Assembly: GCA_964431905.1 (NCBI GenBank)
Contig: CAYSLE010000001.1
Span: 1,185-50,649 of the forward strand
DNA: 49,465 bases
DNA from: an uncultured Dehalococcoidales bacterium
GTDB lineage: Bacteria > Chloroflexota > Dehalococcoidia > E44-bin15
Direction of reading: 5' to 3'
Shown: piece after piece, positions 10,195-38,209 of the stretch
Layout: the number at the start of each line of letters is the position of its first letter
Numbering within the stretch: the first letter of the stretch is position 1
Notes under the pieces: generated by a model
Told to the model about the DNA's origin: nothing
Seen by the model: the letters and a program-made list of their open reading frames with translations, nothing else
Databases searched by the model: none
Made by a program: the position numbers and the translations under genes

Positions 10195-10224
10195 ATCATA
10201 ACATATATATGTCAATATGTCAAT
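10195..10224 (-). promoter_or_regulatory. Candidate TA promoter with operator repeats
   Basis: Minus strand: TTGACA (10223-10218), 17 nt, TATGAT (10200-10195). The spacer carries a perfect 12-bp palindrome ACATATATATGT (10201-10212), and ATTGACAT occurs twice in tandem (10209-10224). Confidence 0.5.
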
Positions 10225-11543
10225 CATCTATACCTCTTGACCTCAAAGCGGTAGAGCACCACCGGCTCGTCGGGCAGGATGCCGGCTTTGGCGCGGCAGA
10301 TCTCGATCTGGTGCTCCACGCTGTCCACCCCCTCCAGGTCGGGGAGAAGAAGCCCCTTCCTCCAGCCGCTCTCAACGATGACCCCGTATCTCTTGGGGTC
10401 GAGCTGGGCCGGGCTCTCCACCGGCTCCGGCTTGGTCAGGACATCGACGCTGTATTCCAGGCCGGAAAGCTCGGCGGGGGTCACCGGCTGGAAGCGGGGG
10501 TCGCGGGTGGCTGAGCTTATAGCGTTGGAGATAACCTCCTCAGCCACATTGGGCTTGGCCGGCTCGAAGGTGCCGATGCAGCCCCGGAGCAGGCCGCCGA
10601 CCTTCAGCGAAACAAACACACCGGCACGCTCCCTCATCTCTGGGGTAAGCTCCGATGGCGGTCTGGGTATCTTCCCCTCGCGGACGTAGCTCTCTATGGT
10701 ATCTTTAGCCAGGCGCACCAGCGGGTGCATCTCCTCACCCGCCTTTATTATTATGCCGGCATAGCCCACTACGGCGTGGTAATCGCCGGTTACGTCGCCG
10801 CTTGTCTGGTACAGAACCAATTCCGCCTTGGCCGCCCCCAGTCCTTTGCACGCCGAGAGGAGGGCGACCGTGGGCGCATAGCCACACATTGTTATACGGA
10901 AATCCTCAACACGCCTTAGGAGTTCGTCTTCATTGAGCTCCAATATTGCCTCTATGGCCAGCTTATCCTTCCTGTTAGCCGACTCCTGAGGCTCGTAATG
11001 CGTCATGTCGCTGCTGGCCATGATCACCACGCCTCTTTTCGAGTCCCTGATCGCCTTGGCTATCCCTTTCCCGATCTCCTTATAGGTGGTGCCAATAGAT
11101 GGGCCCAGGACAATAGGCACGATCTTAATGTCCCTCTTGAAGTATTGCAGGAAGGGTAGCTGCACCTCGATGGAGTGCTCCTCAAGATGGGCGATGTGGT
11201 CCGGTTTCAAATGTGGGGATGACTTCAATATCCTCTTGCCCAGCTCCGAGTCGATCTCCACCTCACCCAGCGGCGTTGACCAAGTCCCCTCTACCATGAT
11301 ACTGAAGGGGTGCCCCAAACCGGTATGGTTAGGCCCCATGATGACGAAGGTATCTTTAAATCTAATCCTTGATATGACAGCGCCGGCCACCGGCCCGGAA
11401 TACATGTATCCAGCATGGGGTGAAACCAGGCCCAGCACCTCTTCCTTGGGTGCCTGTTCATCGATGAGTCTCCGAATCTGTGCCTCCAGCGAAGAAGGCG
11501 AGCCGGGATAGAACTGGCCGGCTACAATAGGATGTCTGATCAT
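10224..11543 (-). CDS. AmmeMemoRadiSam system protein B (Memo-like) fused to protein A (AMMECR1-like)
   Basis: The N-terminal half ([13 protein letters not shown]...[10 protein letters not shown]) is Memo-like. The C-terminal half ([21 protein letters not shown]) is AMMECR1-like. ATG 11543 has a GGGAGG SD and overlaps the stop of the radical SAM gene (ATGA). Confidence 0.85.
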
Positions 11544-12568
11544 AGTGACCTCCCCATCCTCATGTTGAGATCGGCACCGCAATAGCGGCATCTGGAATCC
11601 TCGAGGCCAACGATGTCGGTGTGATAGCCCATCCTTCCGATGACCAGGTTGCCGCAGGAATAGCAGATGGTATTCTCGTTGGCATGACCGGGCACATTGC
11701 CGGTATAGACGAAGCGCAGGCCAACCCTCTTGCCGATGGCATAGGCCCGCTCCAGGGTGGATATGGGGGTCGGGGGCAGGTCCAGTAGCTCATGTTGGGG
11801 GTAGAACCGAGTGACATGCCAGGGGGTCAGCTCCCCCAGCTTATCCCGGATCCAGGTAGCGATGCCCTCAAGCTGCTCCTCATCATCGTTCATGGTGGGG
11901 ATTATGTTGGTCACCACCTCCACATGCATCCCCCACTTCTCTTTAGCCCTCTCCGCCACCTCCAGGATCCCACGCCACCGACTTATTCGGGCGAGTTCCC
12001 GGTGAAAGCGATCGCTGAAGCCTTTTACATCAACGCGGTAGGCCTCGAGATAGGGGCCGATCATGTCCAGAGCCTCTGGGGTGATGTAGCCGTTGGTCAC
12101 ATAGACGGTATAGAGGTTGTTCTCCTTGGCCAGCTTGGCTGAATCGAGGGTATACTCAAACCATATAGTAGGCTCATTATAGGTCCAAGCGATGCCCTGG
12201 CAGTTGGAGCGCTTTGTCATATCAATCGCAGCCTGCGGCGAGACGGTTCGCGACTCTGTAAGGAAGGAGGGGTCACCGCATGAGATCTGCCAGTTCTGGC
12301 AGTGCTTGCAGTGGAAGTTGCAGCCCCAGGTGCCTAAAGAGAAGACCAGGGTCCCGGGAAAGAAGTGGAACAGCGGTTTCTTCTCGATGGGGTCCACAGC
12401 CACCGATGAAGCCGCAGCGTAATTCAGGGCGTAGAGCACACCATCGATGTTCTGGCGCATCTTGCAGACGCCTAGCTTGCCCGGAGCGATGGCGCAACGC
12501 CACTGGCAGATATGGCATCTCACTCTGGAGCCGGGGAGCTTGTCATAGAGCAACACCTCGCGCCTCAT
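11540..12568 (-). CDS. AmmeMemoRadiSam system radical SAM enzyme
   Basis: [11 protein letters not shown] (CxxxCxxC) plus the N-terminal Cys cluster [21 protein letters not shown] place the start at ATG 12568 (GGAGG 5 nt upstream). The listed ORF extends to 12751 and would overlap the divergent thiolase-like gene. Confidence 0.85.
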
Positions 12569-12625
12569 CACCGCCTCCGGCCGTATTTTAGCATATTTGG
12601 GGTACGGTGTAACCCCGACTTCAAC

Positions 12626-12654
12626 TTGACTACCTTCCCCTGAGTTGGTAGACT
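12626..12654 (+). promoter_or_regulatory. Candidate sigma70-type promoter of the CoA operon
   Basis: TTGACT (12626-12631), 17 nt, TAGACT (12649-12654), about 30 nt upstream of the first CDS. Confidence 0.45.
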
Positions 12655-12686
12655 GAACTAGATAGGCAACCGTTAAAAGGGGCTTG

Positions 12687-13877
12687 ATGAAGCGGTTTAG
12701 CCTTAGAGATAAGGCCGCTATAGTTGGAATCGGTGAGACGGAGTATTCCAAAAACTCCGGGATGAGCCACCTGGCGTTACTGCTTCAGGCAGCGACCAGA
12801 GCTATAGAGGATGCCGGCCTCCGTCCCCGGGACATCGATGGCGTGATACCGGCCATGGGTGTTATCCCCTTTGAGGATATTGCCGTCAACCTGGGGACTG
12901 AAGACCTGAGATACACAGTGTCTATCCATATGGGAGGTGCCAGCGCCGTGGCCACGCTGCAGAGTGCCGCCATGGCGGTGGCCTCTGGGATTGCCACCAA
13001 TGTCCTTTGCCTCACCGGCTGGAATGGCTATTCCGGGTTTCGGGCTTCAACCGTCGGCGAGGCTGCGGATGTGTCAGCGCTACCCATGACGGCCATGGCA
13101 TCGCCAATGACCAAGTTACGGGATTTTGAAGTGCCTTATGGGATTTTGGTCCCGGCCCATTGGTATGCCCAACTTGCCATGAGGCACATGCACGAGTTCG
13201 GGACCACCAGCAGGCAACTGGGGGCAGTGGCGGTGGCCTGCCGCAAGCATGCTCAGCTCAATGAGAGAGCGATAATGCGGGGCAGGCCGATGACCATCGA
13301 GGATCATCAGAGTTCAAGGATGATCGTAACCCCCTTCCGCCTTTTCGATTGCTGCCTGGAGAACGATGGCGCTGCTGCCGTGGTGGTAACGTCGGCGGAG
13401 AGAGCTAAGGGCATGAAGCATCGCCCGGTCTACATAATGGGCATTGCCGAAGGCCATCCGGTGCCGGTCGACCACATTGCCAGCAGACTGGATATGTTTC
13501 AAGTAGGCCTTTCCTATGCTGCACCTAGGGCCTTCGCCATGGCCGGCGTCGCCCCCAGGGACATCGCTGTCGCTGAGATCTACGACTGCTTCACCTGGAC
13601 GGTGATCTGCCAGCTTGAGGCACTGGGCTTCTGTAAGCGGGGGGAGGGTGGTCCCTTCGTCGAGGGGGGTCGCATCGAACTCGGTGGAGAGTTGCCGGTA
13701 AACACCCACGGTGGCCTTCTCTCCCAGGCCCATGTATTGGGAATGAACCACGTTGTCGAGGCAGTGAGGCAGGTGCGGGGAGACGCCGGTGACGCCCAGG
13801 TCAGGGATGCTGAGATCGCTCTTGTCACCGGGTGGGGCGACCTGGGCGATGGCTCTGTTGCCATATTGAGGAGATAG
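12687..13877 (+). CDS. Thiolase-fold protein, SCP-x/Ltp2-like, lacking the canonical nucleophilic Cys
   Basis: Thiolase-like pattern (RLFDCCLENDGAAAVVV, NTHGGLLS). The nucleophile motif position reads HMGGASAV, not C-A-S-G. ATG 12687 has a better SD spacing than TTG 12684. Confidence 0.8.
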   Translation: MKRFSLRDKAAIVGIGETEYSKNSGMSHLALLLQAATRAIEDAGLRPRDIDGVIPAMGVIPFEDIAVNLGTEDLRYTVSIHMGGASAVATLQSAAMAVASGIATNVLCLTGWNGYSGFRASTVGEAADVSALPMTAMASPMTKLRDFEVPYGILVPAHWYAQLAMRHMHEFGTTSRQLGAVAVACRKHAQLNERAIMRGRPMTIEDHQSSRMIVTPFRLFDCCLENDGAAAVVVTSAERAKGMKHRPVYIMGIAEGHPVPVDHIASRLDMFQVGLSYAAPRAFAMAGVAPRDIAVAEIYDCFTWTVICQLEALGFCKRGEGGPFVEGGRIELGGELPVNTHGGLLSQAHVLGMNHVVEAVRQVRGDAGDAQVRDAEIALVTGWGDLGDGSVAILRR

Positions 13878-13878
13878 A

Positions 13879-14286
13879 ATGGCTTCTTATGATAAGCCCC
13901 TGCCGCTGATGACACGGGAGACGCGGGAATTCTGGCAGGGATGTAAAAGACACGAGCTTCTCATTCAAAGATGCAAGGACTGTAGAACCTACCGTCATTA
14001 CCCTCGTATCTTGTGCCCTAACTGCGGCTCTTGGAACGTAGAGTGGGCCAAGGTCAGCGGGAAGGGAAAGGTCTATAGCTACATAGTTGCCCACCGGCCG
14101 TTTCACCCCGCCTTCGCCGACGATGTCCCCTATGCCGCGGTCATTGTCGAACTGGAGGAGGGGGTTCGCATGGTGAGCAATGTGGTAGACTGCCGGCCGG
14201 AGGACATATACATCGGGATGCCGGTGGAGGTGGTGTTCGATGACGTCACCAAAGAGGTAACCCTGCCCCGATTTCGAAGGGCATAG
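13879..14286 (+). CDS. DUF35 OB-fold / zinc-ribbon protein
   Basis: CKDCRTYRHYPRILCPNCGS is a zinc ribbon followed by an OB-fold region. It starts 1 nt after the thiolase-like stop. Confidence 0.85.
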   Translation: MASYDKPLPLMTRETREFWQGCKRHELLIQRCKDCRTYRHYPRILCPNCGSWNVEWAKVSGKGKVYSYIVAHRPFHPAFADDVPYAAVIVELEEGVRMVSNVVDCRPEDIYIGMPVEVVFDDVTKEVTLPRFRRA

Positions 14287-14351
14287 CTGGCGTGAAATTA
14301 CGGTAATACCAGCCTTACATAGCAAATGTTCACGGAAAAGGGGGAGAGTGT

Positions 14352-15482
14352 ATGAGCCTTAAAGACAAGTATGCAATTGTGGGGGTGGGATATACCCCTC
14401 AGGGCAAGCTTCCGGATTGGACGGTGAGAGGCCTGTTTCTGGAGGCGTCGAAGAACGCCATCGAGGATGCCGGCCTCACCACCAAGGACATCGATGGCAT
14501 CCTGGTCGAGCTGTGCTGGACGGACCCTACCACCCAGTGCTGGAGCCTACAAGCAGACCTGGGCATCGAGCATACCGGGCTCTGTGCCAACTACGATTCC
14601 ATGGGGGCCAGCGCCAGCGCCAAGGTGCAACTGGCGGCCATGGCCATCGATGCCGGGCTGTGTAAAGCGGTGCTCTGTGCCTTTGTCGAGAAGTCAGCCA
14701 CCGCCTTTGCCGTCCCCTACCGTGTTTCGCTAGGTGCTGGTCTAGCCTATGGATTCTTCGGCGCCATGCCCGGCATTGCTATGGCGGCACAGGCGCACAT
14801 GAGCAAATACGGCACTACCAGCAGGCAACTGGGGGCGATAGCCGTTACCCAGCGACGGCATGCCAGCCTCAATCCCATCGCTCAGATGCGGACCCCGATA
14901 ACCATCGAGGATCACCAGAATTCGAGGATGATTGCGGCGCCGCTTCACCTACTCGATTGCTGCCTCGTCTCCGATGGCGGCCGGGCACTGGTGGTCACCT
15001 CAGCCAAGCGGGCGAAATCGCTGCGGCACCAGCCGGTCTACATCATGGGCATGGGACAGGGCCACGTCATCCTCGACCTCCCGGAGCGGCCGGATATGCT
15101 GGATACCGGTGCCAAACGTTCGGGGGAGGCAGCCTTCAAGATGGCAGGGATCACCTGCAAAGATGTGGATGTTCTCGAGCTTTACGATGCTACCACCTAT
15201 AATGTCATCACCCAGCTGGAGGAGCTCGGCTTTTGCAAGCGGGGCGAGGCCGGGCCTTTCGTAGAGGGGGGAATGCTGTCCATCGATGGCGAGCTGCCCA
15301 CTAATACCTCGGGGGGAATGCTGTCCGAGGCCTACCTCCAGGGCTGGACCGGGCTTATCGAGTTGGTGCGCCAGCTAAGGGGCGATTGCGGCCAGCGCCA
15401 GGTCAAGGATGCTGAGATCGGGCTGGTCACCAACCAGGGAGGCTTCATCGGCTTCCACTCCACCCTTATCCTGAGGAGGTAA
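14352..15482 (+). CDS. Thiolase-fold protein paralog, SCP-x/Ltp2-like, also lacking the nucleophilic Cys
   Basis: Paralog of 12687-13877 and shares an identical 20-mer with it (13206-13225 = 14817-14836). The motif position reads SMGASASA. Also LLDCCLVSDGG and NTSGGMLS. Confidence 0.8.
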   Translation: MSLKDKYAIVGVGYTPQGKLPDWTVRGLFLEASKNAIEDAGLTTKDIDGILVELCWTDPTTQCWSLQADLGIEHTGLCANYDSMGASASAKVQLAAMAIDAGLCKAVLCAFVEKSATAFAVPYRVSLGAGLAYGFFGAMPGIAMAAQAHMSKYGTTSRQLGAIAVTQRRHASLNPIAQMRTPITIEDHQNSRMIAAPLHLLDCCLVSDGGRALVVTSAKRAKSLRHQPVYIMGMGQGHVILDLPERPDMLDTGAKRSGEAAFKMAGITCKDVDVLELYDATTYNVITQLEELGFCKRGEAGPFVEGGMLSIDGELPTNTSGGMLSEAYLQGWTGLIELVRQLRGDCGQRQVKDAEIGLVTNQGGFIGFHSTLILRR

Positions 15483-15913
15483 TGATGGTTGAAATGCAGA
15501 AGCCACTTCCGGGCATAACCGAGGCGACAAAGCCCTACTGGGAGGCAGCTAAGCGGCACGAGCTATTGCTCCTGAAGTGCGTTGATTGCGGCCACTACCG
15601 CCATCCTTTGGCCCCTGGGGAGAGCTTCATGTGTCCCAACTGCAACTCGGTAAAGCAGCCGCAGTGGGTTAAGGCCAGCGGCAGGGGGAAACTTGTAACC
15701 TGGACGGTGATGTACAAAATTTTCCACCCCGCCTTCGCCAGCGAGGCGCCATATGCTGTCGCCATCGCCGAGTTGAAGGAGGGGCCGAGGATGCTGGCTA
15801 ACCTCCGCGGGGTGAAGCCTGAAAATATAAAAGCTAATATGGAGGTGGAGGTCTTTTATGAGGATCTGACCGATGAGGTCACCCTGCCCCAGTTCAGACC
15901 GAGAGGGAAATGA
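15482..15913 (+). CDS. DUF35 OB-fold / zinc-ribbon protein (second copy)
   Basis: CVDCGHYRHP...CPNCNS zinc ribbon. TAATG overlap with the upstream gene. Confidence 0.85.
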   Translation: MMVEMQKPLPGITEATKPYWEAAKRHELLLLKCVDCGHYRHPLAPGESFMCPNCNSVKQPQWVKASGRGKLVTWTVMYKIFHPAFASEAPYAVAIAELKEGPRMLANLRGVKPENIKANMEVEVFYEDLTDEVTLPQFRPRGK

Positions 15914-16524
15914 GGATGATAGTCATTGGCCTCACCGGAGGGATTCTCAGCGGAAAAAGCACTGTATCCGAGATGCTGGCTAAAAAAGGAGCGGTTATCA
16001 TAGATGCCGACAAGATCGGCCATCAAGCGTATAAGCCCGGCACGGAGACTTGGCAAAAGCTCGTTACCGCCTTCGGCAGGGGGATCCTTAAAGAGAACGA
16101 TGAGATAGATCGAAAAAAGCTGGGCGATATCGTCTTTAACAACCCCCAGGCCCTGGCCCAGCTGAACCGGATCGTGCATCCCAAGATGCACTCCATGATG
16201 AAGGAGGAGATCGAGAGACTGAGAGGTAAAGGGGTAGACGTGGTGGTGCTTGAGGCCGCGGTGCTCATCGAGGCTAACTGGACTGACCTTGTTGACGAGG
16301 TCTGGGTCACGGTAGCCCCGGAGGAAGTGGCGGTCAAGCGCCTTCAAAATAGGGGCGGCCTTAACGAGGAGCAGGCCCGGGCTCGCATCCGCTCCCAGCT
16401 CTCCCCTAATGAGCGGGCCGAGCACGCCGATGTAATAATAGATACCGATTGCCAGCTTTCCCAAGTCAGAGCCAAGGTGGAAGAGCTGTGGCAAGGGCTT
16501 CAAAAAAGGAGTGGTTCAGAATGA
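15910..16524 (+). CDS. coaE: Dephospho-CoA kinase
   Basis: [16 protein letters not shown]-loop, [12 protein letters not shown], and 204-aa length. ATGA overlaps at both ends. Confidence 0.9.
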
Positions 16525-17414
16525 GTTTGCAGAGCACCAGGACGCTTTATAGGGAACACATGATCGAGGAATATGTGGTCCGGAGGGAGCCCTATTACCT
16601 GCCCATCGGCGATGAGGTCCAAATCTTCGAGGCTGCCTTTGCCCAGAAGATACCGGTTATCCTTAAGGGGCCGACTGGCTGCGGCAAGACCAGGTTTTTG
16701 GAGTATATGGCCTACAGGTTAGGGCGCCCCCTTACCATCGTGAAGCCACGGAGTAAACAGGGGTTGCCCGAGAAAAGCGGTATCCCCCTGGTCACTGTGG
16801 CCTGCCATGAGGACCTGAGCGCCACCGATCTGGTGGGCAGATACCTCCTTGAAGGGGACTCGACCAAGTGGCTCGACGGGCCGTTAACCAGGGCAGTGAA
16901 GGCCGGGGCTATCTGTTACCTGGATGAGATCGTGGAGGCGAGAAAGGATACCACGGTGCTCATTCACCCCCTCACCGACCACCGCCGCATCCTGCCGGTG
17001 GAGAAGAAGGGACAGGTCATCGAGGCTGACAGCAATTTCCTCCTGGTGATCTCCTATAATCCCGGATACCAGAGCGCCCTGAAGGACCTCAAGCACAGCA
17101 CCCGCCAGAGATTCATCGCCATCGACTTCGCCTATCCACCTCGAGATAAGGAAAAGGAGATCATCGAGCACGAGAGCGGGGTCTCAGCAGAGGTCGCCTG
17201 GGATCTGGCCAAGCTTGGCGAGAAGGTGAGGAACCTCAAGGAGCACGGGCTTGAGGAGGGGGCTTCTACCCGTCTCTTGATCTACGCCGGCAGGCTCATC
17301 GGGGAGGGCATCCCACCGCGGAGGGCCTGTCAGGTGGCTATAGTATCGGTGCTAAGCGACGATGCCGAGGTGCAGCGAAGCATTGAGGAGGTCGTGTCCA
17401 CCATCTTTGAGTAG
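16521..17414 (+). CDS. CbbQ/NirQ/NorQ-family MoxR-type AAA+ ATPase
   Basis: Walker [24 protein letters not shown], Walker [20 protein letters not shown]...[14 protein letters not shown] 16521 follows an AAAGGAG SD and overlaps the coaE stop. Confidence 0.85.
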
Positions 17415-17443
17415 GCACCCCTTGGGAGTTGTCGGTGAACAGA

Positions 17444-18823
17444 ATGAAGCTCTTTATGGAGCCTGATTCGGTGGCCATTATCGGGGTCTCCAGAGTCACC
17501 GGCCCCGTTACCCTGAATATCCTGGAGAACCTGGTGAACGCCGGTTTTCTGGGGAGGGTCTACCCGGTGAATCCCAATGCCGACGAGATCCTGGGGATGA
17601 AATGCTACCGCAGTGTGCTCGACATCCCCGATGGTATCGACCTCGCCGTGATAACCACGCCGCGCTCAGTGGTGCCACGCATCGTCGGCGAGTGCACCCA
17701 AAAGGGAATAAGGGCTCTCATCGTCGTCGGTCAAGGGTTCGCCGACGGGGATGAGGAGGGTAAAAAGCTACAAGAAGAGATAGTGAGGATCGCCAGGGAA
17801 GGCGGGGCCAGGATACTGGGGCCCAATACCTTCGGCATCGCTAACGCCTTCAATAATCTCAGCTCAGCCTATATGAAACTGGAGATGAATAAGGTCCCCA
17901 TAGGGATTATCGCTCAGAGCGGGTTCTTTTTTGTTGGCCTGCCCAAATTCACCGTAGTGGGAAAGGGGATCGACCTGGGCAATGCCTGTGATATCGATTT
18001 CGCCGATGGCCTGGAATATTTTGAGGATGACCCCCAGATTAAATTGATCCTCCTCCATATAGAAGGGACGAAGGATGGCAGACGGTTTATTGAGGTCGCA
18101 GGGCGAGTGGCGAAGAAAAAGCCCATAATCGCCCTCAAGACGGGCAGAGGAGAAGACGGGGCCAGGGCAGCCCGCTCTCACAGCGGCTCGCTGGCAGGCA
18201 GGGACGAGGTCTACGATGCCGCTTTTCGGCAACACGGTATCATCAGGGTTGGCGATGTCGATGAGTTCCATGACCTGGCCAAGGCCTTCCTACACCTGCC
18301 CCCGATCAAGGGAAGGAGCATTGGGGTAATCACCATCACCGGCGCTGGCGGCATCATCGCCACTGACGCCTGCGAAAGGTATAACCTGCACTTGGCCAAG
18401 CTTTCACCCCAGACCTTGAGCACAATCGGCCCTTTGGCACCCTCGTGGCAGACCCTGGAGAATCCCGCCGATATCTGGCCAGCGATGATGATTGAGAGGC
18501 ACCCTTTTGATGAGGTCTTCACCACCATCCTGGAGGCATTCCTGGCCGATGGTAATATCCATGCTGTCATCCTCATCTTCGCTGCTTTCCCTATCCAGTT
18601 CCCGACATTCCCGATGAGGGACCTCAGCCAGATTGCCAACAGATTCGAAAAGCCCGTCGTCTGCTGGCTATACGGGCCCGATCCAGAGAAGATGGCCAGT
18701 CTGATAGAGAACGAGGCGAGAATAGTGGTTTTCCCCACCTTAGATCGGGCGATGAGGACTCTCTCCAGGCTCAACGATTATTTCGAATACCTAGCGAGCG
18801 CCAACAATGAAGGTGACAGATAG
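17444..18823 (+). CDS. ADP-forming acyl-CoA synthetase alpha-subunit-like CoA-binding protein
   Basis: N-terminus MKLFMEPDSVAIIGVS (CoA-binding Rossmann fold) and phosphohistidine-loop-like ARSHSGSLAG. The size matches an AcdA-type alpha subunit. The start is uncertain (TTG 17429, GTG 17435 or ATG 17444). Confidence 0.8.
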   Translation: MKLFMEPDSVAIIGVSRVTGPVTLNILENLVNAGFLGRVYPVNPNADEILGMKCYRSVLDIPDGIDLAVITTPRSVVPRIVGECTQKGIRALIVVGQGFADGDEEGKKLQEEIVRIAREGGARILGPNTFGIANAFNNLSSAYMKLEMNKVPIGIIAQSGFFFVGLPKFTVVGKGIDLGNACDIDFADGLEYFEDDPQIKLILLHIEGTKDGRRFIEVAGRVAKKKPIIALKTGRGEDGARAARSHSGSLAGRDEVYDAAFRQHGIIRVGDVDEFHDLAKAFLHLPPIKGRSIGVITITGAGGIIATDACERYNLHLAKLSPQTLSTIGPLAPSWQTLENPADIWPAMMIERHPFDEVFTTILEAFLADGNIHAVILIFAAFPIQFPTFPMRDLSQIANRFEKPVVCWLYGPDPEKMASLIENEARIVVFPTLDRAMRTLSRLNDYFEYLASANNEGDR

Positions 18824-19448
18824 TTCTCGACAGCGGAAACACCGAGCGGCCAAGGATAGCAATGCGTTCAAAGAGAAGATCCGCCGAATCCTCTCCCAGA
18901 GGGTGAAGCATACCATCGTCTTCACCGATGCCCCTTTAGCTCCGGCTGCGGTGCTGGTGCCCCTTTATAAGAGGGAAGGGGAATACTACCTCCTGTTCAC
19001 CAAGAGAACGGAGAGACTGGTGCATCATAAAGGCCAGATATCCTTCCCCGGAGGGGCACAACACAAGGAGGATCGAGACCTTGCGACCACCGCCCTCCGC
19101 GAGACCTTTGAGGAGATCGGGGTCAAGCCTGAGGACGTGGAGATATTGGGGGAGCTGGACCGGATGGGCACGGTCACCAGCTACTTCCTCATCACACCCT
19201 TCGTTGGCATTATCCCATATCCGTACAAGTTCACCGTGAGCCAAGATGAGATAGAGGAGCTGGTGGAGGTCCCCATATCGGCGCTTCTGTCCAAAGCGAA
19301 CTATCGGGAAGAGAACCACGAGTATGAGGGCAAAACCTATGTGGCGAGCTTCTTCGATTATAAAGGCAAGGTGATTTGGGGAGCAACCGCCAAGATTCTA
19401 AAGCAGTTCCTGGATCTTGTCTTCGAGGAAAATGGCACGAGGGCATGA
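18807..19448 (+). CDS. Nudix hydrolase, CoA pyrophosphatase type
   Basis: NuCoA-type motif LLFTKRTERLVHHKGQISFPGG followed by the Nudix box GGAQHKEDRDLATTALRETFEEIGV. Overlaps the upstream gene by 17 nt. Confidence 0.85.
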   Translation: MKVTDSSRQRKHRAAKDSNAFKEKIRRILSQRVKHTIVFTDAPLAPAAVLVPLYKREGEYYLLFTKRTERLVHHKGQISFPGGAQHKEDRDLATTALRETFEEIGVKPEDVEILGELDRMGTVTSYFLITPFVGIIPYPYKFTVSQDEIEELVEVPISALLSKANYREENHEYEGKTYVASFFDYKGKVIWGATAKILKQFLDLVFEENGTRA

Positions 19449-19449
19449 C

Positions 19450-22400
19450 ATGGCAGATGAGCACCTTTCACCACTGGAGCGGGAACTGGGCCACTTTCCC
19501 CCTGCACTCCTAGCCGAATTCCACAAAGCGGCTCCGGCGGCCAGGGCCCGACTCTCCCCAAAGGAGTTTGAGGATTGGGCCAAGGAGGGCATTGCCATAG
19601 CCCAGTCTTCCTACCGCGCCTGGGAGCCGGCTTTGGAGTATTTCAGGGCAACCCCCAAGACCCTGGAGAAACTCTCCTTTCCCACTCTGATCTCATGGGT
19701 CCAAGTGGGCAAAAGGCTTTCTCAGGAGTCCTGCACCCTCTCCTCAGCCTATTTTCGAGCAAGCCCTGGCGCCATCAACTTCCTCGCACCGAACCAGTTT
19801 GAGGACTGGGCCAGCATAGGGAGAAGCCTGTACAAAGAGACCTGGCGCTCCAGCTCCCTCTCAGCGAAGTTTTTCGAGTGCAGCCCAGGGTTCCTGTCCT
19901 ACCTAGACCTTGAGGCGGTCTCGCGGTTTGTCCTTTTTCTGGGGACGCTCGCCGAGAAATCCTATGACCTGGCTAACGAGTGCTTGCTTCTGGCCGAGGA
20001 GGTCTTTGCCGGGTTGGAACGGGATGAGCGGATGCCCTTTATCAACCTGGCGTCGGTTCTGGCACAAACCAATTGTGCCGATGCCAGAACCTACTTCGCC
20101 CTCGGGCCCAGGATCCTTTCCCGGATCGAGCGGGGGGAGAGGAACCGCTTCCTGTCTCTGGCCATGGCCATTGCCAGCTCTAAGGGCATCCACGCCCCCT
20201 CCTTTCTGTTCGATGGGTCTCAGGCTCTAAGCAAGCTGGACGCCGCGCTCCACAGCCCCCTGCTCGATGCCTTCGAGGAGCTATCGCCCCTTTCCGCCGC
20301 CTCTGCCATCGAGTTCCTGAGGGTCTCTCCCACCCTGCTGCAGCGGATCGATATCTCAAGGCTAGGGCACTGGCTCAGCGAGGGGAAGAGCATTTTGAAG
20401 AAACGGAGAGAGGCTGGGGAAGCCTACTTCCGCTTGGAGTCGATGAGGTGTGAGGAGGTTTTGCAGCGCCTGTCCTCCGGGGTTGAGCTAGACCAAGTTA
20501 AAGAGGTGCTGCGAATGTACTGTAGAGCGCTCACCGGGCGCAATGCTCAAATACTTTCCACCGAGAATTTGACGGGTAGAGGCATCGGATGGACCTCCCT
20601 GGAAATGCCCTCCACCGAGGGAACCGGAGTGTTTCTACCGTCCATCGTCGACAAATATGACACCAAGAGAGATAACTTCGGCTGGTATAAGGTTATGGTC
20701 ACCCACCAGGCAGGGCATCTTGAATTTGGCAGCTTCGATTTCTCCTTCGAGAAGGAGGCCACCCTCTTCCCCAACCTGCGCTTTGAGCTTGGCGACCGAA
20801 GCGGGAATGGTATTACCGACCTGGAGAGGTTCTTCGATCTCTTCGCCGACCGTCGCCTTGCCGCCGACATCTTTACTGCGGTGGAGGACACGAGGGTAGA
20901 CTACCTGCTCAAGGGAGAATATGCCGGGATTAGAAAAAGATATGAGCAGGTGCAGCGAGAGGCGCTGGCGGATAGACCCCCGGTGAATTCCCTGCCATTG
21001 AGGCAGGCATTTGTCGAGTTCCTGACCCAAGTGAGCCTGGTGGACCTTGACCATGTCGAATTTCCCGCTGAAGTGGCGCGTGAGCTTCGCCTGGTTACTC
21101 AAATCGCCAGCAAGGTAAAGTCGCCCCAGGCCACCGTGGAGGACTCCGCTGAAGCTACCATCAGGCTCTATGCCCTCATAGCTAAGATCATCAATATGAT
21201 GTATGAGCAGGGGTGGCAGACCATCGATCTGAACATGGATTTTGAAGACCTCGATGAGCTCATCGTATCCCTCGATGGCATTCCCAAGGGGGATAGGGTA
21301 GAGGGCACTGAACTGCCCTATGAAAGCCCGCCACAAGTGGATTTCCGCGGCGATTTCAAACCGGAGCTTGTTCAATTGCTAATGAAATTAAAGCAGGACT
21401 ACTCTCAGCGCGATACTCCTCCGGGCACACCTCTGTCCCCAGAGGCCCTGAAGGAACTGGCGGAGAAGAGCGTTGAGATCGAGCTTGCCTGTGTATCACC
21501 CGGCGATCTATCCTCCTCCATCGGCCTATTCATCAGCAACCTGATGGACCAACTGAACCAGCCGATACCTTCTCTAACCATCCCAGAAAGGAAAGAAGCA
21601 AAAAAAGCCGCCTCGGAGGAGAAGGCCCTGGAAGAGGAAAAGAATTCCTTCCTCTATGATGAATGGGACTTTCGCGCCAACGATTATAAGCCCAGGTGGT
21701 GTCGCCTCCGAGAGAAGACCACCGCTGAAGGGACAGCGGAGTTCTTCGAAGACACCCTGAAAGATCATTCCCATCTGGCTGCTCAGATCAAGAGACAATT
21801 CGAACTGGTGACGCTGGAATTCTTCAAGAAGATAAAGAGGCTTCACGATGGAGAGGATTTCGATCTAGATGCCGTGATTGAGGCCATGGTAGAGAAAAAG
21901 GCCGGGGTTGCTCCCAGCGAGAAGATCTACTGGAGACGGAACAAAGTGGAGAGGGATGTCTCCGTGGCCTTTCTCCTCGATATGAGCGCATCGACCTCCG
22001 AAGCCATCGAGGAGGTAAAAACGAAACCGGATAATTGGGATTTCGATACCAACCTGAGAGGCTATTTGCAGTATCTCAGGATGCAGCGCGAAGACATGGG
22101 AGGACAAAAAACAAGGCGCATCATCGATGTGGAAAAAGAGAGCCTGGTCCTCCTGATCGGGGCGCTGGAAACCATCGGCGACCAATATGGAATCTATGGC
22201 TTCTCCGGGTATGGCAGGGACAATGTGGAGTTCTTTGTCATCAAGGACATCGATGAGGATTTTTCGGAGAGGGTAAAACAACGGATCGACAAGCTTGCTC
22301 CACTGCACGCCACCAGAATGGGGCCAGCGATAAGACATGCCACCTCAAAGCTACTGAGGCAGGATTCCAGGACCAAGATCCTCTTCCTGATCAGCGATGG

Positions 22401-22641
22401 TCGCCCCCAGGATCATGGTTATGGCCGGGATTCTATGGAGAAAGACTACGCCATCCACGATACCAAGATGGCGCTCCTGGAGGCCAAGCGAAAGAATATA
22501 GTGCCCTTCTGTCTAACTGTGGATAAGGCAGGGCAGGACTACCTAAAGAAGATGTGCCATGATATCGGCTATGAAGTGGTGTGGGACATCGAATCCCTGC
22601 CCAAACGCCTGCCCACCCTCTATAGAAGGCTGACCACCTAG
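19450..22641 (+). CDS. Large VWA-domain protein, CbbO/NorD-like
   Basis: The C-terminal VWA domain has the MIDAS motif DMSASTS, then FLISDGRPQD and FCLTVD. The N-terminal ~330 aa consist of ~37-aa helical repeats. ATG 19450 lies 1 nt after the Nudix stop. Confidence 0.8.
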   Translation: MADEHLSPLERELGHFPPALLAEFHKAAPAARARLSPKEFEDWAKEGIAIAQSSYRAWEPALEYFRATPKTLEKLSFPTLISWVQVGKRLSQESCTLSSAYFRASPGAINFLAPNQFEDWASIGRSLYKETWRSSSLSAKFFECSPGFLSYLDLEAVSRFVLFLGTLAEKSYDLANECLLLAEEVFAGLERDERMPFINLASVLAQTNCADARTYFALGPRILSRIERGERNRFLSLAMAIASSKGIHAPSFLFDGSQALSKLDAALHSPLLDAFEELSPLSAASAIEFLRVSPTLLQRIDISRLGHWLSEGKSILKKRREAGEAYFRLESMRCEEVLQRLSSGVELDQVKEVLRMYCRALTGRNAQILSTENLTGRGIGWTSLEMPSTEGTGVFLPSIVDKYDTKRDNFGWYKVMVTHQAGHLEFGSFDFSFEKEATLFPNLRFELGDRSGNGITDLERFFDLFADRRLAADIFTAVEDTRVDYLLKGEYAGIRKRYEQVQREALADRPPVNSLPLRQAFVEFLTQVSLVDLDHVEFPAEVARELRLVTQIASKVKSPQATVEDSAEATIRLYALIAKIINMMYEQGWQTIDLNMDFEDLDELIVSLDGIPKGDRVEGTELPYESPPQVDFRGDFKPELVQLLMKLKQDYSQRDTPPGTPLSPEALKELAEKSVEIELACVSPGDLSSSIGLFISNLMDQLNQPIPSLTIPERKEAKKAASEEKALEEEKNSFLYDEWDFRANDYKPRWCRLREKTTAEGTAEFFEDTLKDHSHLAAQIKRQFELVTLEFFKKIKRLHDGEDFDLDAVIEAMVEKKAGVAPSEKIYWRRNKVERDVSVAFLLDMSASTSEAIEEVKTKPDNWDFDTNLRGYLQYLRMQREDMGGQKTRRIIDVEKESLVLLIGALETIGDQYGIYGFSGYGRDNVEFFVIKDIDEDFSERVKQRIDKLAPLHATRMGPAIRHATSKLLRQDSRTKILFLISDGRPQDHGYGRDSMEKDYAIHDTKMALLEAKRKNIVPFCLTVDKAGQDYLKKMCHDIGYEVVWDIESLPKRLPTLYRRLTT

Positions 22642-22710: not shown

Positions 22711-23181
22711 TCACTGCTTCTTGCCCTCAATGGCCCCCTTGGTTTTGACCTTCATGGTCTTGGGCTTAGCCTCCTCAGACCTGGGGATGGTTAGGGTCAA
22801 GATACCGTTCTCAAAGGTGGCCTCAGCCTTGTCCGTTTTAAGGTCAGCGGGGAGTTTTACCGAGCGACTGAAGGCACCATAGCGATGCTCCTGATAGAGG
22901 TAGTCCTCCCGCTTCACCTCCTCTTTTACTTTGGTCTCGCCTTTTATGGATAGTGTGTCTCCAGTGATGGTAACCTCTACCTCCTCAGGCTTGACGCCGG
23001 GCAAGGCGGCTTTAACCACCACCTCTTTCGCCGTCTGATACATGTCGATAAGCGGCTGCTCCTCTTCACCGAAGAACTCCTTGATGCGCGATGGCCGGAC
23101 AAAGCTCTCCTCGAAGAGCCGGTCCATAGCCTGACGCAGGCTCATCAACTCCCTGAAGGGCTCCCAACGAACAATGCTCAT
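22711..23181 (-). CDS. Hsp20/alpha-crystallin small heat-shock protein
   Basis: MSIVRWEPFRELMSL N-terminus and an alpha-crystallin domain ending GILTLTIP. ATG 23181 has an AGGAGGTGA SD; the listed GTG 23190 does not. Confidence 0.9.
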   Translation of the reverse strand: MSIVRWEPFRELMSLRQAMDRLFEESFVRPSRIKEFFGEEEQPLIDMYQTAKEVVVKAALPGVKPEEVEVTITGDTLSIKGETKVKEEVKREDYLYQEHRYGAFSRSVKLPADLKTDKAEATFENGILTLTIPRSEEAKPKTMKVKTKGAIEGKKQ

Positions 23182-23217
23182 CTTCCTCACCTCCTTTCAT
23201 GAATTAATCTCGCTATT

Positions 23218-23246
23218 AGTCTAGCGTGTTAGTATGATTTTGTCAA
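23218..23246 (-). promoter_or_regulatory. Candidate hsp20 promoter
   Basis: Minus strand: TTGACA (23246-23241), 17 nt, TAGACT (23223-23218). Confidence 0.5.
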
Positions 23247-23296
23247 GACTCCTACAATCACGTTGCAATATATCAATAATAAATCATTTAAAAGTA

Positions 23297-23325
23297 TTGA
23301 CATAATTTTATAATTATCTTATAAT
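23297..23325 (+). promoter_or_regulatory. Consensus sigma70 promoter of dnaJ-hspR-clpC
   Basis: TTGACA (23297-23302), exactly 17 nt, TATAAT (23320-23325), in a very AT-rich spacer. The AAGGAGAGG SD and ATG 23348 follow. Confidence 0.6.
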
Positions 23326-23347
23326 AAAAATCAATAAGGAGAGGAAA

Positions 23348-24346
23348 ATGGCGGCTAAGGACTTCTATCAAATTCTCGGTGTGAGTCGGAAGGCCAGCGA
23401 TAAGGAGATAAAGCAGGCCTATCGCCGGCTGGCACGTAAGTATCACCCCGATGTTAACCCGGGCAATCCCTCCGCTGAGGCCAAGTTCAAGGAGATAAAC
23501 GCTGCTTATGAAGTCCTCTCCGATCCGGAGAAGCGCAAGAAATACGACCAGTTTGGCGATAAGTGGCAGTATGCCGACCAATTCGCTGGATGGCAGCAGG
23601 GCTCCTTTGGCGACCATGCCCGGCAAGGGGCCACTGTCTTCGACTTTGGTGACGCCTTCGGCGAAGGCGACCTGGGCGGGATTTTCGATGGCCTGTTTCG
23701 AGGTTTCGGCACCAGGACCGCATCCCGCCGGCCCAGGCGCGGCCGTGACATCGAGCAGCCCATTGAGGTCACTCTAGAGGAAGCCTATCACGGCAGCACC
23801 CGCACTATTGGCACTCAGGCTGAGAGCGTCTGCGACGTCTGCAATGGAAGAGGGGCACTGGGGAATGCCCCCTGCTACACCTGTGGCGGCACGGGTAGGG
23901 TGCTCCGGCAGCAGCGTCTCGAGGTCAAGATCCCACCCGGGGTTAAGGATGGCTCGCGGATACGTGTCGCGGGCAAGGGTGGGCCCGGCTCCGCCGGCGG
24001 CTCAAGCGGCGATCTTTATCTTGTAGTCACGGTCCAGCCCCATTCTATATTCCAGCGGAAAGATAGCGATCTCCAGGTGGAAGTTGCCGTTCCCATTACC
24101 GATGCCATACTGGGCGGCGAGGTGGAGGTGCCGACGCTAAAGGGCAAAGTTGCCCTCAAGATACCCCCCGAGACCCAGAATGGGCGGGTGTTTCGCCTCG
24201 CCGGACAGGGCATGCCGGTGATGGGCAATACCAAGAAGGGCGACCTCCTGGCCAAGGTTAATATCGTCCTGCCCACCAAGCTAACGGAAAGGGAAAGGGA
24301 GCTTTTCCGGGAGCTGAGAAAGCTTCGCGGAGGTGACAAGAGATGA
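23348..24346 (+). CDS. dnaJ: DnaJ-class co-chaperone with a two-repeat zinc finger
   Basis: J domain with HPD ([10 protein letters not shown]) and a G/F-rich linker. Only two CxxCxGxG repeats ([16 protein letters not shown]), followed by C-terminal substrate-binding domains. Confidence 0.85.
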
Positions 24347-24657
24347 TGTTCGATGATACTGAACCCTGCTACGTGATCAGCGTCGTCGCCAGGATGCTGG
24401 GCGTCAGTGCCCAGTCACTGCGCTATTATGAAAAGGCGGGGCTCATTGAGCCATCGCGCTCCCAGGGGCGGGTGCGCCTTTACTCCCAAAGGGACGTGGA
24501 GAGGCTGCGCCAGGCAAAGACGCTGATCGATGACCTGGGGGTAAACCTTGCTGGGGTGGAGGTCATACTCCGCCTTAGGGAGCATATCGCTGAGATGGAG
24601 AGACAGATGGAGGAGTTGGAGGTAGAGATCAAGCGCCTCAGGGAGGCCAAGCTCTAG
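24343..24657 (+). CDS. hspR: MerR-family heat-shock repressor HspR
   Basis: [46 protein letters not shown] is a MerR HTH. ATGA overlap with dnaJ. The position after dnaJ is the classic hspR context. Confidence 0.8.
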
Positions 24658-24675
24658 CTCGAAAAGGAGTTTACC

Positions 24676-27087
24676 ATGATGAGACAGGATAGATTTACGG
24701 AACAGGCACAGGAGGCACTGGCCCTCTCCCAGGAGCTGGTGCGTCGTTACCGCCACAACCAGTGGGATGTGGAGCACATACTTCTCGCCCTGCTCCAGCA
24801 GGAGAATGGTTTGACCGGCGATATACTGAGAAAGCTGGGGGTGAATGCCGACGAGGTGCGGAGCCGCGTCGAAGCAGCGCTGGAGAAAACGCCCAAGATC
24901 GCCTATGAAGGGGCCACGCTCTACGCCACGCCGCGCACGGTGCGCCTTATGGAGAATGCCGCCTCCGAGGCCGAGCGGCTGAAGGATGAGTTCATCGGCA
25001 CTGAACACCTGCTCATCGCTATAGCCGGCGACCGGCAGGGGGACGCCGCCGCCATCCTTAGTGACTTCGGCATCGATCAGGAGAAGATATATCGCGCCCT
25101 TCAGGACATCCGCGGCGGACACCGCGTTACCGACCCCAGAGCGGAGAGCAAATACGGTGCTTTGGAGAAGTATAGCCGCGACCTGACCATGCTCGCCCGC
25201 GAGGGAAAGCTAGACCCGGTTATCGGGCGAGACGACGAAATAAAAAGGGTGATGCAAATCCTCACCAGACGCACCAAGAATAACCCGGTTATCATCGGCG
25301 AGGCCGGGGTGGGCAAGACTGCCATCGTGGAGGGCCTGGCCCAGAAGATCGTGGCCGATGATGTGCCCGATTCCCTCAAAGGCAAAAGGGTGATCGCCCT
25401 GGATATGGGGGCTCTGGTAGCCGGCTCCAAGTTCCGTGGCGAGTTCGAGGAGCGGCTCAAGGCGGTGATGGACGAAATCCGCCAGGCTCACGGCGAGATC
25501 ATCCTATTTATCGATGAGATGCACACCGTGGTCGGCGCCGGCGCGGCGGAGGGGGCCATCGATGCTAGCAACATGCTCAAGCCAGCCCTGGCCCGGGGCG
25601 AGCTCCGATGCGTGGGGGCGACAACGCTGGATGAGTATCGGGAGCATATCGAAAAGGATGCTGCCCTGGAGCGGCGGCTACAACCGGTTTACATCGATGA
25701 GCCCAGCGTCGAGGCTACCATCGAGATGCTCCGTGGGCTGCGCCCACGGTATGAGGCTCACCACAAGATACAGATCACCGATTCCGCCCTTGAGGCTGCT
25801 GCCCGGCTAAGCCAGAGGTATATCTCGGACCGCTTCCTCCCGGACAAGGCGGTGGACCTCATCGATGAGGCGGCATCGAAGATCAGGATCGACACCGAGA
25901 GCGCGCCCTCTGAGGTGAAGGAGCTGGAGAAAAAGGTAAAGCAACTAATCAATGAGGAGGAAGCAGCATCGCAGCGTCGAGAATACGAGCATGCCGCCGA
26001 GCTTAAGGTGGAACGACTGCGCCTGGAAGAGAGCTATAATCAAGCCAAGGCCAACTGGCTCCAAGAGAAGAGGATCGATGGGGTTGTGGACGAGGAGAAC
26101 ATCGCTGAGCTGATATCCAAATGGACCGGCATCCCCGTGTCCCGCATGCTGGAAGGGGAGACGGAGAAGCTCTTACATATGGAGGAGCGCATTCATGATA
26201 GGATCATCGGCCAGGATGCTGCGGTTGAGGTTGTCTCCCAGGCCATTAGACGGGCCAGGGCCGGGCTCAAGGATCCGAAGAGACCCATAGGCAGCTTCAT
26301 GTTCCTGGGGCCAACCGGCGTGGGCAAGACCGAGCTGGCTCGGGCCCTGGCTGAGTTCCTCTTCGATGATGAGGAGGCCATGGTCCGGCTCGATATGTCC
26401 GAGTACATGGAAAAGCACACCGTGTCTCGGCTTATCGGTGCCCCACCGGGCTACATCGGCTACGAAGAAGGGGGACAGCTCACCGAGGCAGTGCGCCGCC
26501 GACCCTATAAGGTGATCCTCTTCGATGAGGTGGAAAAGGCGCACCCCGATGTGTTCAACATCCTGCTTCAGATACTGGAGGACGGCCGGCTGACCGATGG
26601 TCATGGCAGAACCGTCGACTTTAAGAACACCGTGGTGATCATGACCTCCAACCTGGGCACTGAGGAGTTCCAGCGCCAAGCCATCGGTTTCTCCAAGGAG
26701 ACCAAGAGCGAACAGAAACGGCTAAAGGGCGCCATAGATAGCGCCCTGAAAAAGACCTTCCGCCCTGAGTTCCTCAACCGTCTTGATGAGATCGTTATCT
26801 TCCAGCCCCTCACCGAGGAGCAGATCAAACAGATCGTCGATCTCATGATGAAGGACGTTAGGAAGCGACTTGCCGATAGAAAGATAACTGTGGAACTTTC
26901 CCAGGCAGCCAAGGCTAAACTGGCCGAAGAGGGCTTCGACCCGGTATTTGGGGCCCGCCCATTGCGCCGCACCATACAGCGCCGGGTGGAGAACCCCTTG
27001 TCCATGAAGATACTTCAAGGGGAGTTTAAGGAGGGAGACCGCGTAGTCGTCGATGTCGGCCCCGATGGCTTCACCTTCACCGCTTGA
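24676..27087 (+). CDS. clpC: Clp/Hsp100 AAA+ chaperone, ClpC type
   Basis: Clp_N repeats and two Walker A boxes ([16 protein letters not shown]). The middle domain is short (~65 aa) with a UVR-like [14 protein letters not shown] sits where B. subtilis ClpC has its VGF ClpP-docking loop; ClpB lacks that loop. Confidence 0.75.
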
Positions 27088-32724: not shown

Positions 32725-32822
32725 GGGAGCGGATGGGTCCCGGTGGGCTCCGCGGACTTCAAATCCGTCGGCAGGTACCCTGCGGTGTCTGCGGTAGGTT
32801 CGACTCCTATGCGCTCCCGCCA
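32725..32822 (+). tRNA. selC: tRNA-Sec (anticodon UCA)
   Basis: Folded by hand. Acceptor GGGAGCGG/GCGCUCCC (7 WC pairs plus a terminal G:G). 6-bp D stem GGGUCC/GGGCUC with a 4-nt loop CGGU. Anticodon loop CUUCAAA (UCA at 32759-32761). 25-nt variable arm with a ~9-bp stem. T arm GUAGG-UUCGACU-CCUAU. Discriminator G and an encoded CCA. Confidence 0.85.
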
Positions 32823-32825
32823 ATG

Positions 32826-34676: not shown

Positions 34677-34679
34677 GCT

Positions 34680-35732
34680 TCACTCCTTGATTACGATCCT
34701 GCCCTTGGGTTGTGCCAGGACCTCGCCGATGATCGCTGCCCTCTCTATACCATCACGGTGCAGCTTTTGAAGAAGCGCCTTAGCCTTTTTTCCGGGGACC
34801 GAGATCAGCAGTCCCCCCGATGTCTGAGGGTCGAAGAGAAGGTTAAGCATCTCATCGGATATGTCATAGGTCAGCTCTATCATTTGCCAGCGAAATTCAC
34901 GATTGCGCTGCATTCCTCCCGGCACCAGCCCCATCTGGGCAAACTGGAGCGCCTCGGGAAATAGGGGGATAGATGCGACGCGGATCTCCATACCCACTTC
35001 GCTATTCTCAATCATGCCGCAGGCGTGGCCGAGGAAACCGAAGCCGGTGATGTCGGTGCAGGCGTGGACCCCTGCCTCCAGCATTAACTCCGATGCCCTC
35101 TGGTTCAAGGCGGCCATGCTTCGAGAGGCCCGGAGAATGGTCCCCCTCTCGGCCACCCCACCCTTTATGGCTGTGCTCACCAGTCCCGTGCCCAGGGGCT
35201 TGGTCAGGATCAGCTTATCCCCGACTTTGACCCCTGCCCTGGCGATGATCCTCAAAGGATGCACCACGCCGGTGACCGATAGGCCATATTTCAGCTCAAC
35301 ATCATCGACGCTGTGTCCCCCCACCAGGGCGACCCCCGCCTCCCGCAGCTTGTCGAAGCCACCGCGCAGTATGTCTTTGAGCACCGATATGTCCTGGGTC
35401 TTTATCGGAAAGCAGACCACATTCATCGCGGTGACTGGCCTGCCTCCCATGGCATAGACATCGCTCAGGGCATTGGCGGCAGCGATCTGGCCAAAGGTGT
35501 AAGGGTCATCGACGATGGGGGTGATGAAATCGATGGTCTGGATGATAGCCAGCTCATCGCTCAGCTTATAGACCCCAGCATCATCGCCCTTTTCCAGGCC
35601 CACCAGCAGGTTGGGGTCATCGACCACAGGCAGCCCGCACAAGGCTTTATCCAGGTCCGACGGACCTATTTTTGCGGCTCAACCTGCCCCGCGAACGCTC
35701 TCGGTCAGGCGTGGCCTCACCTTATCGTCCAT
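34680..35732 (-). CDS. selD: Selenide, water dikinase, selenocysteine-containing (in-frame TGA at 35679-35681)
   Basis: The listed ORF lacks the SelD N-terminus. Reading upstream in frame gives MDDKVRPRLTESVRGAG-U-AAKIGPSDLDKAL from ATG 35732 (GGGAGGA SD). TGA sits at the position of the catalytic Cys/Sec in the GxG(C/U)xxK loop. Confidence 0.85.
35653..35667 (-). promoter_or_regulatory. SECIS-like hairpin downstream of the selD UGA
   Basis: Minus strand AGGUCC-GUC-GGACCU (6-bp stem, loop GUC). It begins after an 11-nt spacer (GCCGCAAAAAU) following the UGA. Confidence 0.6.
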
Positions 35733-35743
35733 CTTATCCTCCC

Positions 35744-36481: not shown

Positions 36482-36486
36482 TATTA

Positions 36487-36919: not shown

Positions 36920-36923
36920 CCGC

Positions 36924-38057: not shown

Positions 38058-38168
38058 AACGCCCTCCTTTCCTTCCAATCACCGGTAAGAGCCACGCTCT
38101 TAGCTCCTTCACGACTCATGTCCGGCGCTTCACTGCTCTCACCCCCTCTCTCCGCGATTCCCGGCAAC

Positions 38169-38198: not shown

Positions 38199-38209
38199 GG
38201 GCAATACGT

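Follow-up and report, generated by a model that had tools for sequence, protein, structure and literature searches.

A CbbQ/NorQ-type ATPase and its long VWA adaptor in a conserved CoaE-phosphohydrolase gene block of Chloroflexota

To our knowledge, Rubisco and the nitric oxide reductase cNOR are the only well-understood clients of the AAA+ motors of the CbbQ/NorQ type. Which protein is served by such a motor if neither of the two is encoded in its vicinity? The question is raised by a stretch of 49,465 nucleotides from an uncultured Dehalococcoidales bacterium (assembly GCA_964431905.1, contig CAYSLE010000001.1; hereafter the window), in which a MoxR ATPase of this type (here called Q) and a VWA protein of 1063 amino acids are encoded within a run of nine tightly packed genes. 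The answer favoured here, with about even confidence, is that the pair represents a third branch of CbbQ/NorQ-VWA remodellers, Chloroflexota-wide and mainly found in Dehalococcoidia, whose likely role is the opening of a client holding coenzyme A (CoA) or a related nucleotide cofactor. An earlier reading of the window (the sequence-only reading) had noted the pair without a known client nearby and had suggested as a new client class the ACD-alpha-like protein or the thiolase/DUF35 complexes encoded in the same run.

A conserved block of CoaE, ATPase, phosphohydrolase and adaptor

A collection of species-representative genomes (one genome per species) was scanned, and at least 564 stretches that encode a relative were found. 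The best 80 of these at least 564 were taken; nearly all belong to Dehalococcoidia/Chloroflexota, including the cultured isolate Tepidiforma flava, which has the block (NZ_CP115149). Architectures were counted over 81 species-level loci by stop-to-stop open reading frames (ORFs) and iterated profile searches (jackhmmer), the wider survey comprised 90 related loci in all, and client genes were sought within ±8 kb around the surveyed loci. The window itself is bacterial, encoding LspA, IspD/IspF, SelB, DnaJ and ClpB, and its closest relatives are metagenome-assembled genomes of Chloroflexota/Dehalococcoidia. The absence of a known client in the neighbourhood was borne out: genes for Rubisco, NOR or carbon monoxide dehydrogenase (CODH) were found neither in the window (Pfam searches of the large ORFs; several short ORFs have no Pfam match) nor in the 90 related loci, and nor, cbb or cox genes are missing from the ±8 kb around every surveyed locus.

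One constant neighbour of the pair is a gene which the sequence-only reading had missed. Directly 5′ of Q, and overlapping it by a stop/start ATGA, lies the gene of the dephospho-CoA kinase CoaE (equivalog model TIGR00152, 171.3 bits against a cutoff of 65.55). Of the 72 loci with Q near the VWA gene, 68 have CoaE immediately upstream of Q, and the P-loop of CoaE is kept in 66 of 69 loci. The distance from the CoaE stop to the Walker A motif of Q has a median of 159 nt across loci, compared with 143 nt in the window.

Three arrangements account for most of the loci: CoaE-Q-Nudix-VWA (25 of 81), CoaE-Q-MPE-VWA (22-25 of 81), MPE being a YfcE-family metallophosphoesterase (TIGR00040, 4.4e-16), and CoaE-Q-VWA with nothing inserted (14-15 of 81). 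In a neighbour-joining tree of the adaptors, which in the conserved block are about 1060-1100 amino acids long, the Nudix, MPE and no-insert types form three deep clades, two of which have, as a rule, a small phosphohydrolase gene between Q and VWA. The premise that a split pair is unusual is therefore not sustained for this family. Catalytic motifs are intact in 28/28 Nudix and 26/26 MPE proteins. The window Nudix protein has both the G-x3-FPGG motif and the REx2EExG box, as do all 28 Nudix genes in this slot, and reaches 129.3 bits with the CoA pyrophosphatase model NF007980, just below the cutoff of 134. Even distant members with an N-terminal identity of 25-31% and unrelated flanks have the order CoaE-Q-Nudix-VWA or CoaE-Q-VWA. 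The survey of genes between and beside the relatives thus brought out CoaE and the hydrolase as conserved partners, rather than ACD-alpha, thiolase or DUF35 genes.

Further recurrent neighbours are the genes for ETF alpha/beta (about 22 loci) and a convergent CinA gene (MoCF_biosynth plus CinA domains) downstream of VWA in about 31 loci, namely L001, L089 and about 29 others. CinA is presumably an NMN deamidase/ADP-ribose pyrophosphatase; if so, another nucleotide-cofactor salvage enzyme lies nearby. A literature search for a MoxR/VWA system linked to CoaE or CoA pyrophosphatase, or for NorQ/CbbQ in Dehalococcoidia or Tepidiforma, yielded no paper describing such a system.

Anatomy of the ATPase and its adaptor

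Both genes are intact ORFs with the motifs previously named in their translations, and the identification of Q as an ATPase of the CbbQ/NorQ type, and of its VWA partner as NorD-type, was confirmed by Pfam, motifs, structure matches and the alignment to NorD. Q has the features of the CbbQ/GvpN/NorQ subfamily, an AAA_5 domain with a CbbQ_C lid, and its Walker A (GPTGCGKT), Walker B (LDE), SYNPGYQ and helix-2-insert (GRxLLxxxxT) motifs are all intact. In NorQD structures the last of these motifs of NorQ contacts the NorD finger (PMC13036017). A VWA/MIDAS partner is co-encoded as well; in about 68 of the 81 loci Q precedes VWA within 3.5 kb. Among solved structures Q matches both CbbQ (5c3c, 2.5e-102) and NorQ (9qh4, 9.1e-93), with an identity of 56-59% to the CbbQ and NorQ references alike, which are 51% identical to each other; its identity to the Q proteins of related loci is 69-88%. 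Behind the Walker-A helix Q has an insertion of 19 residues which is missing from CbbQ (5c3c, 6l1q) and NorQ (9qh4, 9qhd), while an insertion of 14-29 residues is found in 70/70 related loci. Judged by its sequence, Q is a branch of its own, equidistant from CbbQ and NorQ and marked by a clade-specific insertion.

The relationship of the VWA protein to NorD is confined to its C-terminal part. Residues ~735-1063 align to NorD 352-643 (HMM) and span the finger, the MIDAS (D844/S846/S848, T955 and D983) and the C-terminal tail, in agreement with a Foldseek match of the C-terminus to the NorD structure (9qh6_G, 3.3e-12). In NorD the finger comprises residues 403-448 of PdNorD, and finger and C-terminal tail engage NorQ (PMC13036017). 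A profile of 22 family members compared with NorD is significant only from NorD ~265/352 on and gives ~0 bits in the N-terminal part; a NorD-type N-terminal domain is thus lacking. The first ~730 residues gave no match in Pfam or NCBIfam beyond weak hits to CobT, seen in 2 of 18 members (E 0.024). Searched by itself, this region has matches to 1247 cluster representatives (clusters at 50% identity), of which 732 reach E<=1e-10.

An AlphaFold 2 (AF2) model of the VWA protein (mean pLDDT 74.8) divides this N-terminal region into three parts. Residues 1-340 form 17 helices (pLDDT ~90), arranged as hairpin repeats which are also visible in the sequence. Residues 335-625, modelled separately, gave a pLDDT of 83.6 and a pTM of 0.85; Foldseek found no fold match in the PDB for this model (best E 4.2), and for the whole VWA model only VWA/MIDAS structures. 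Invariant in the domain at 345-600 are T418-H419-Q420, E425, E479-D480, R482, D484 and E564-D565, the motif THQxx[HR]xE being kept in 81/81 loci. The linker that follows has a pLDDT below 50 at residues 606-616, 653-660, 681-687 and 704-751, partly extending beyond its borders. A search for gene fusions among the parts of the module gave one candidate (P0307), a PAS/HisKA fusion, which was uninformative.

Possible clients and the weighing of explanations

The mechanics of NorQD comprise a hexameric motor, a finger of NorD in its pore, the tail, and a grip on the client by the MIDAS and the N-terminal domain (PMC13036017, PMC9976466). By homology, Q would form a hexamer on which a single VWA protein docks with its finger in the pore and its C-terminal tail on the post-sensor-1 loop, while the MIDAS and the unique N-terminal ~730 residues would grip the client. 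Hydrolysis of ATP by Q would then twist or pull the client open. The opened client may be an enzyme holding CoA or a related nucleotide cofactor, from which a bound or damaged ligand would be freed or exchanged; the Nudix or MPE hydrolase would destroy the freed species and CoaE would resupply CoA. CoA-linked opening is put forward as the likeliest role because the invariant partners of the pair are the last enzyme of CoA biosynthesis and a hydrolase of nucleotide diphosphates or phosphodiesters. A tie to CoA or nucleotide cofactors is favoured, in other words, since CoaE is conserved, two unrelated phosphohydrolase folds occupy one slot and CoA enzymes join in a sublineage. A narrower version, in which the block is a self-contained cofactor-repair machine, seems rather unlikely. 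Here the activase would free trapped or damaged CoA from a CoA-dependent enzyme or from CoA-modified proteins, the adaptor's N-terminal domains would read the client, the Nudix/YfcE-type hydrolase would destroy the freed CoA species and CoaE would finish CoA resynthesis, much like a Rubisco activase with its inhibitor phosphatase moved to CoA enzymology.

Several observations weigh against the role proposed here. The link to CoA is speculative and is drawn from gene linkage; CoaE probably represents the housekeeping copy, perhaps carried as a passenger within a conserved operon. We know of no CoA substrate for YfcE-type enzymes, and one of the major clades is without a hydrolase between Q and VWA. 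In 7 of the 81 loci VWA has no Q nearby (another 3 lie at contig ends), and relatives of ~725 amino acids are without CoaE and often without an adjacent Q. No client was identified at the window or the related loci. The ~725-residue relatives also lack the helical repeats, and no recurrent neighbour that might point to an ancestral client was found among those of the surveyed loci.

A serious rival, and a real possibility although on the doubtful side, is that CoaE and the hydrolase are co-transcribed housekeeping genes, while the client of Q and VWA has nothing to do with CoA and may, for instance, be a metalloenzyme with its gene elsewhere. NorQD inserts metal into its client (PMC13036017), and the invariant His/Glu/Asp cluster in the novel domain of the adaptor could, from its residues, bind metal. 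The clade without hydrolase and the short relatives without CoaE fit this explanation as well, and the convergent CinA gene shows that plain synteny is preserved here. However, the block persists where its flanks are wholly exchanged and where identity has fallen to 25-31%, CoaE and Q abut nearly everywhere, and phosphohydrolases with two unrelated folds have come to occupy the place between Q and VWA. A reading in which the N-terminal domains of the adaptor themselves do the work, chelatase-like or enzymatic and without a separate protein client, would suit the invariant THQxxHxE and ED/EDxxE clusters and the weak CobT matches, but these domains have no significant family or fold match and the MIDAS, the proposed client-binding site in NorD and CbbO, is intact; we consider this hardly probable. 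Equally improbable is a genuine NorQD or CbbQO serving NOR or Rubisco elsewhere in the genome. Q is indeed highly similar to both ATPases, and JGI names many relatives "nitric oxide reductase NorD/NorQ protein"; yet Q stands at equal distance from both and has its clade-specific insertion, no nor, cbb or cox gene is close to the surveyed loci, and the N-terminal ~730 residues of the adaptor have no counterpart in NorD. Accordingly, in a plasmid collection 257 of 258 matching records (NorD-type and unnamed VWA-protein genes) cover only residues ~734-1063. The JGI label is probably misleading for Chloroflexota and an inference of NO reduction from it is probably wrong; for another phylum, NorQ/NorD-type labels in omics data have been taken to indicate NO reduction (PMC6081418).

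The client named by the sequence-only reading, either the ACD-alpha-like protein encoded between the pair or the thiolase/DUF35 complexes encoded upstream, is very unlikely, although in the window these genes share one run with translational coupling and the ACD-alpha-like gene recurs in the same slot at two related loci (L002 and L085). With the window, these two and L086 and L087 make up the five closest loci. ACD-alpha is present in three of the five and missing from L086, L087 and all other loci; thiolase/DUF35 genes are present in four and missing from L086, and neither occurs in the 79 other loci at species level or in distant members. The complete order CoaE-Q-ACD-alpha-Nudix-VWA of the window is found among the 81 loci in L002 only. 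The flanks of the closest relatives are identical, with radical-SAM and Memo-AMMECR1 genes upstream and Hsp20/DnaJ/MerR/ClpB downstream. Within these fixed flanks L085 has thiolase-DUF35 and ACD-alpha genes, L087 the thiolases without ACD-alpha, and L086 neither. These genes thus come and go in the sublineage of the window, and as the 1063-residue adaptor is conserved over its full length in loci without them, they are not its general client; the ACD-alpha-like gene is a lineage-specific insertion into the module. The protein itself reaches 387 bits with the acetate-CoA ligase alpha model TIGR02717 (cutoff 567) and keeps a phosphohistidine-type motif (SHSGSLAG), and an ATP-grasp beta-subunit partner was found neither in the run nor in the whole window. 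A second ACD-alpha-like paralogue of the window adjoins two family-III CoA-transferases.

For the thiolases a further hint comes from a plasmid of Miltoncostaea oceani (Actinomycetota; NZ_CP064358, L091, 3076-11318), which has Q and an adaptor split into 362 + 548 amino acids, without CoaE. A thiolase/OB-fold/AMP-binding cluster lies ~4 kb from this short-type pair on the other strand, with an acetolactate-synthase-like gene nearby. As a pointer to a thiolase link this proximity is weak and is not reproduced elsewhere.

What is plausible in the earlier proposal is the new client class as such, whereas the candidates named for it are unsupported. NorD's N-terminal domain has been suggested to mediate target specificity and is not conserved among MoxR partners (PMC9976466). 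Because the specificity of NorD may reside there and the corresponding ~730 residues of the VWA protein are family-specific and unrelated to NorD, a different client is argued for, and the client of Q/VWA is probably neither NOR nor Rubisco. With the CoA-linked remodeller favoured here, a large and coherent branch with a distinct adaptor, an ATPase signature and a CoaE/phosphohydrolase linkage is added to the CbbQ/NorQ type, its function being predicted, and the block offers a testable entry point to the role of orphan MoxR/VWA pairs.

The gene neighbourhood and known systems

The genes of the run overlap or are spaced by no more than 14 nt, with a single exception of 65 nt. A gap of 14 nt separates Q from the ACD-alpha-like gene, which overlaps the Nudix gene by 17 nt, and one base lies between Nudix and VWA. 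The four genes are thus coupled and the pair brackets the ACD-alpha-like and CoA-pyrophosphatase-type Nudix genes (Pfam, NCBIfam), both as described before. The coordinates are given in Table 1.

Table 1 Features of the window with their coordinates, strand and the basis of the assignment
Feature	Position	Strand	Basis
Run of nine genes	12684-22641	+	ORFs, Pfam, NCBIfam
Two thiolase-like/DUF35 (ChsH2-type) pairs, head of the run, lineage-specific accessories	12684-15913	+	Pfam, NCBIfam
Thiolase-like	12684-13877	+	Pfam, NCBIfam
DUF35/ChsH2-type	13879-14286	+	Pfam, NCBIfam
Thiolase-like	14352-15482	+	Pfam, NCBIfam
DUF35	15482-15913	+	Pfam, NCBIfam
CoaE, dephospho-CoA kinase, first gene of the conserved module	15910-16524	+	Pfam CoaE 2.7e-50; TIGR00152
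Q, CbbQ/NorQ-type MoxR AAA+ ATPase, 297 aa	16521-17414	+	AAA_5 3.5e-29; CbbQ_C 1.2e-31
Q insertion, 19 residues, after the Walker-A helix	16731-16787	+	Alignment to solved CbbQ/NorQ
ACD-alpha-like CoA-binding protein	17429-18823	+	CoA_binding + Succ_CoA_lig
Nudix hydrolase, CoA-pyrophosphatase type	18807-19448	+	NUDIX; NF007980
VWA protein, 1063 aa	19450-22641	+	NorD-like C-terminus with MIDAS
VWA residues 1-340, helical hairpins repeated about eight times, ~38-40 aa each	19450-20469	+	AF2 and sequence
VWA residues 345-600, family-specific alpha/beta domain	20482-21249	+	Invariant columns and domain model
VWA residues 601-735, acid-rich linker, mostly low-confidence	21250-21654	+	AF2 pLDDT, sequence
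VWA residues 736-1063, NorD-like finger region, VWA/MIDAS and C-terminal tail	21655-22641	+	HMM alignment, Foldseek
Memo+AMMECR1 fusion beside radical-SAM protein	10224-12751	-	
Heat-shock block: Hsp20 (-), then dnaJ, MerR/HspR-like regulator, clpB	22711-27087		
TTGACA-17-TATAAT	23297-23325		
Selenocysteine cluster	32725-40792		
tRNA-Sec	32725-32818		Rfam 72.6 bits
SelB	32826-34676	-	
SelD-like AIRS protein	34680-35642	-	
SelA	38042-39604	+	
Class-V aminotransferase	39635-40792	+	
NrpR-type regulator (HTH_12 + NRD1_2) and adjoining LUD-domain/4Fe-4S protein	40883-43188	-	
Family-III CoA-transferase	45169-46398		
Family-III CoA-transferase	46322-47641		
Second ACD-alpha-like paralogue	47659-49113	-	

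Upstream of the run lies a Memo+AMMECR1 fusion beside a radical-SAM protein, and in L002 and L085-L087 the module likewise has this domain trio upstream. The heat-shock block on the other side, where a perfect TTGACA-17-TATAAT stands ahead of dnaJ, adjoins the module only in the window and the same four loci; a heat-shock linkage of the pair (Hsp20, DnaJ, HspR-like, ClpB) was weighed and dismissed as a matter of local synteny, limited to the sublineage of the window. Farther downstream there are a selenocysteine cluster and an NrpR-type regulator, a kind of regulator known mainly from archaea. The PADLOC library of defence systems gave no meaningful match, only a P-loop-level hit to IetA (E 1.5e-4, 19 bits).

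Among known systems, the activase CbbX is co-encoded with CbbY, a xylulose-bisphosphate phosphatase, so that a remodeller stands next to a small hydrolase by which the freed ligand could be destroyed. The module resembles this pair by analogy alone, the AAA+ clade and the hydrolase folds being different. The chelatases CobS/CobT and BchI/BchD likewise combine an AAA+ motor with a VWA/MIDAS partner and act on a third component, but Q belongs to the CbbQ_C family and not to CobS, the CobT matches of the adaptor are weak, and no CobN/BchH-like gene is found at the module. A further MoxR/VWA pair is RavA/ViaA, whose partners in respiratory complexes have their genes at other places in the genome (PMC10585395). 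RavA/ViaA belongs to another MoxR subfamily, and the module of the window has no LdcI-like or Frd context.

The closest comparisons are those with CbbQ/CbbO and NorQ/NorD. Without any cbbL/S, cbbM or carboxysome gene linkage in the window or the related loci, the module differs from CbbQ/CbbO in its context and shares with it the partnership of MoxR ATPase and VWA adaptor as well as 58% identity between Q and CbbQ (5c3c, 6l1q); this comparison covers the Q/CbbQ sequences and the gene context, not CbbO. NorQ/NorD, which acts in the insertion of non-haem iron into cNOR, differs by its linkage to norCB, whereas the pair described here has no nor genes nearby, in the window or the related loci, and sits with CoaE and a phosphohydrolase; moreover, Q has the insertion and the window adaptor is longer than NorD by ~420 residues, its N-terminal ~730 being unrelated. 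Common to both systems are the close identity of the ATPases, the H2-insert kept in Q, and the last ~330 residues of the adaptor, which align to NorD 352-643.

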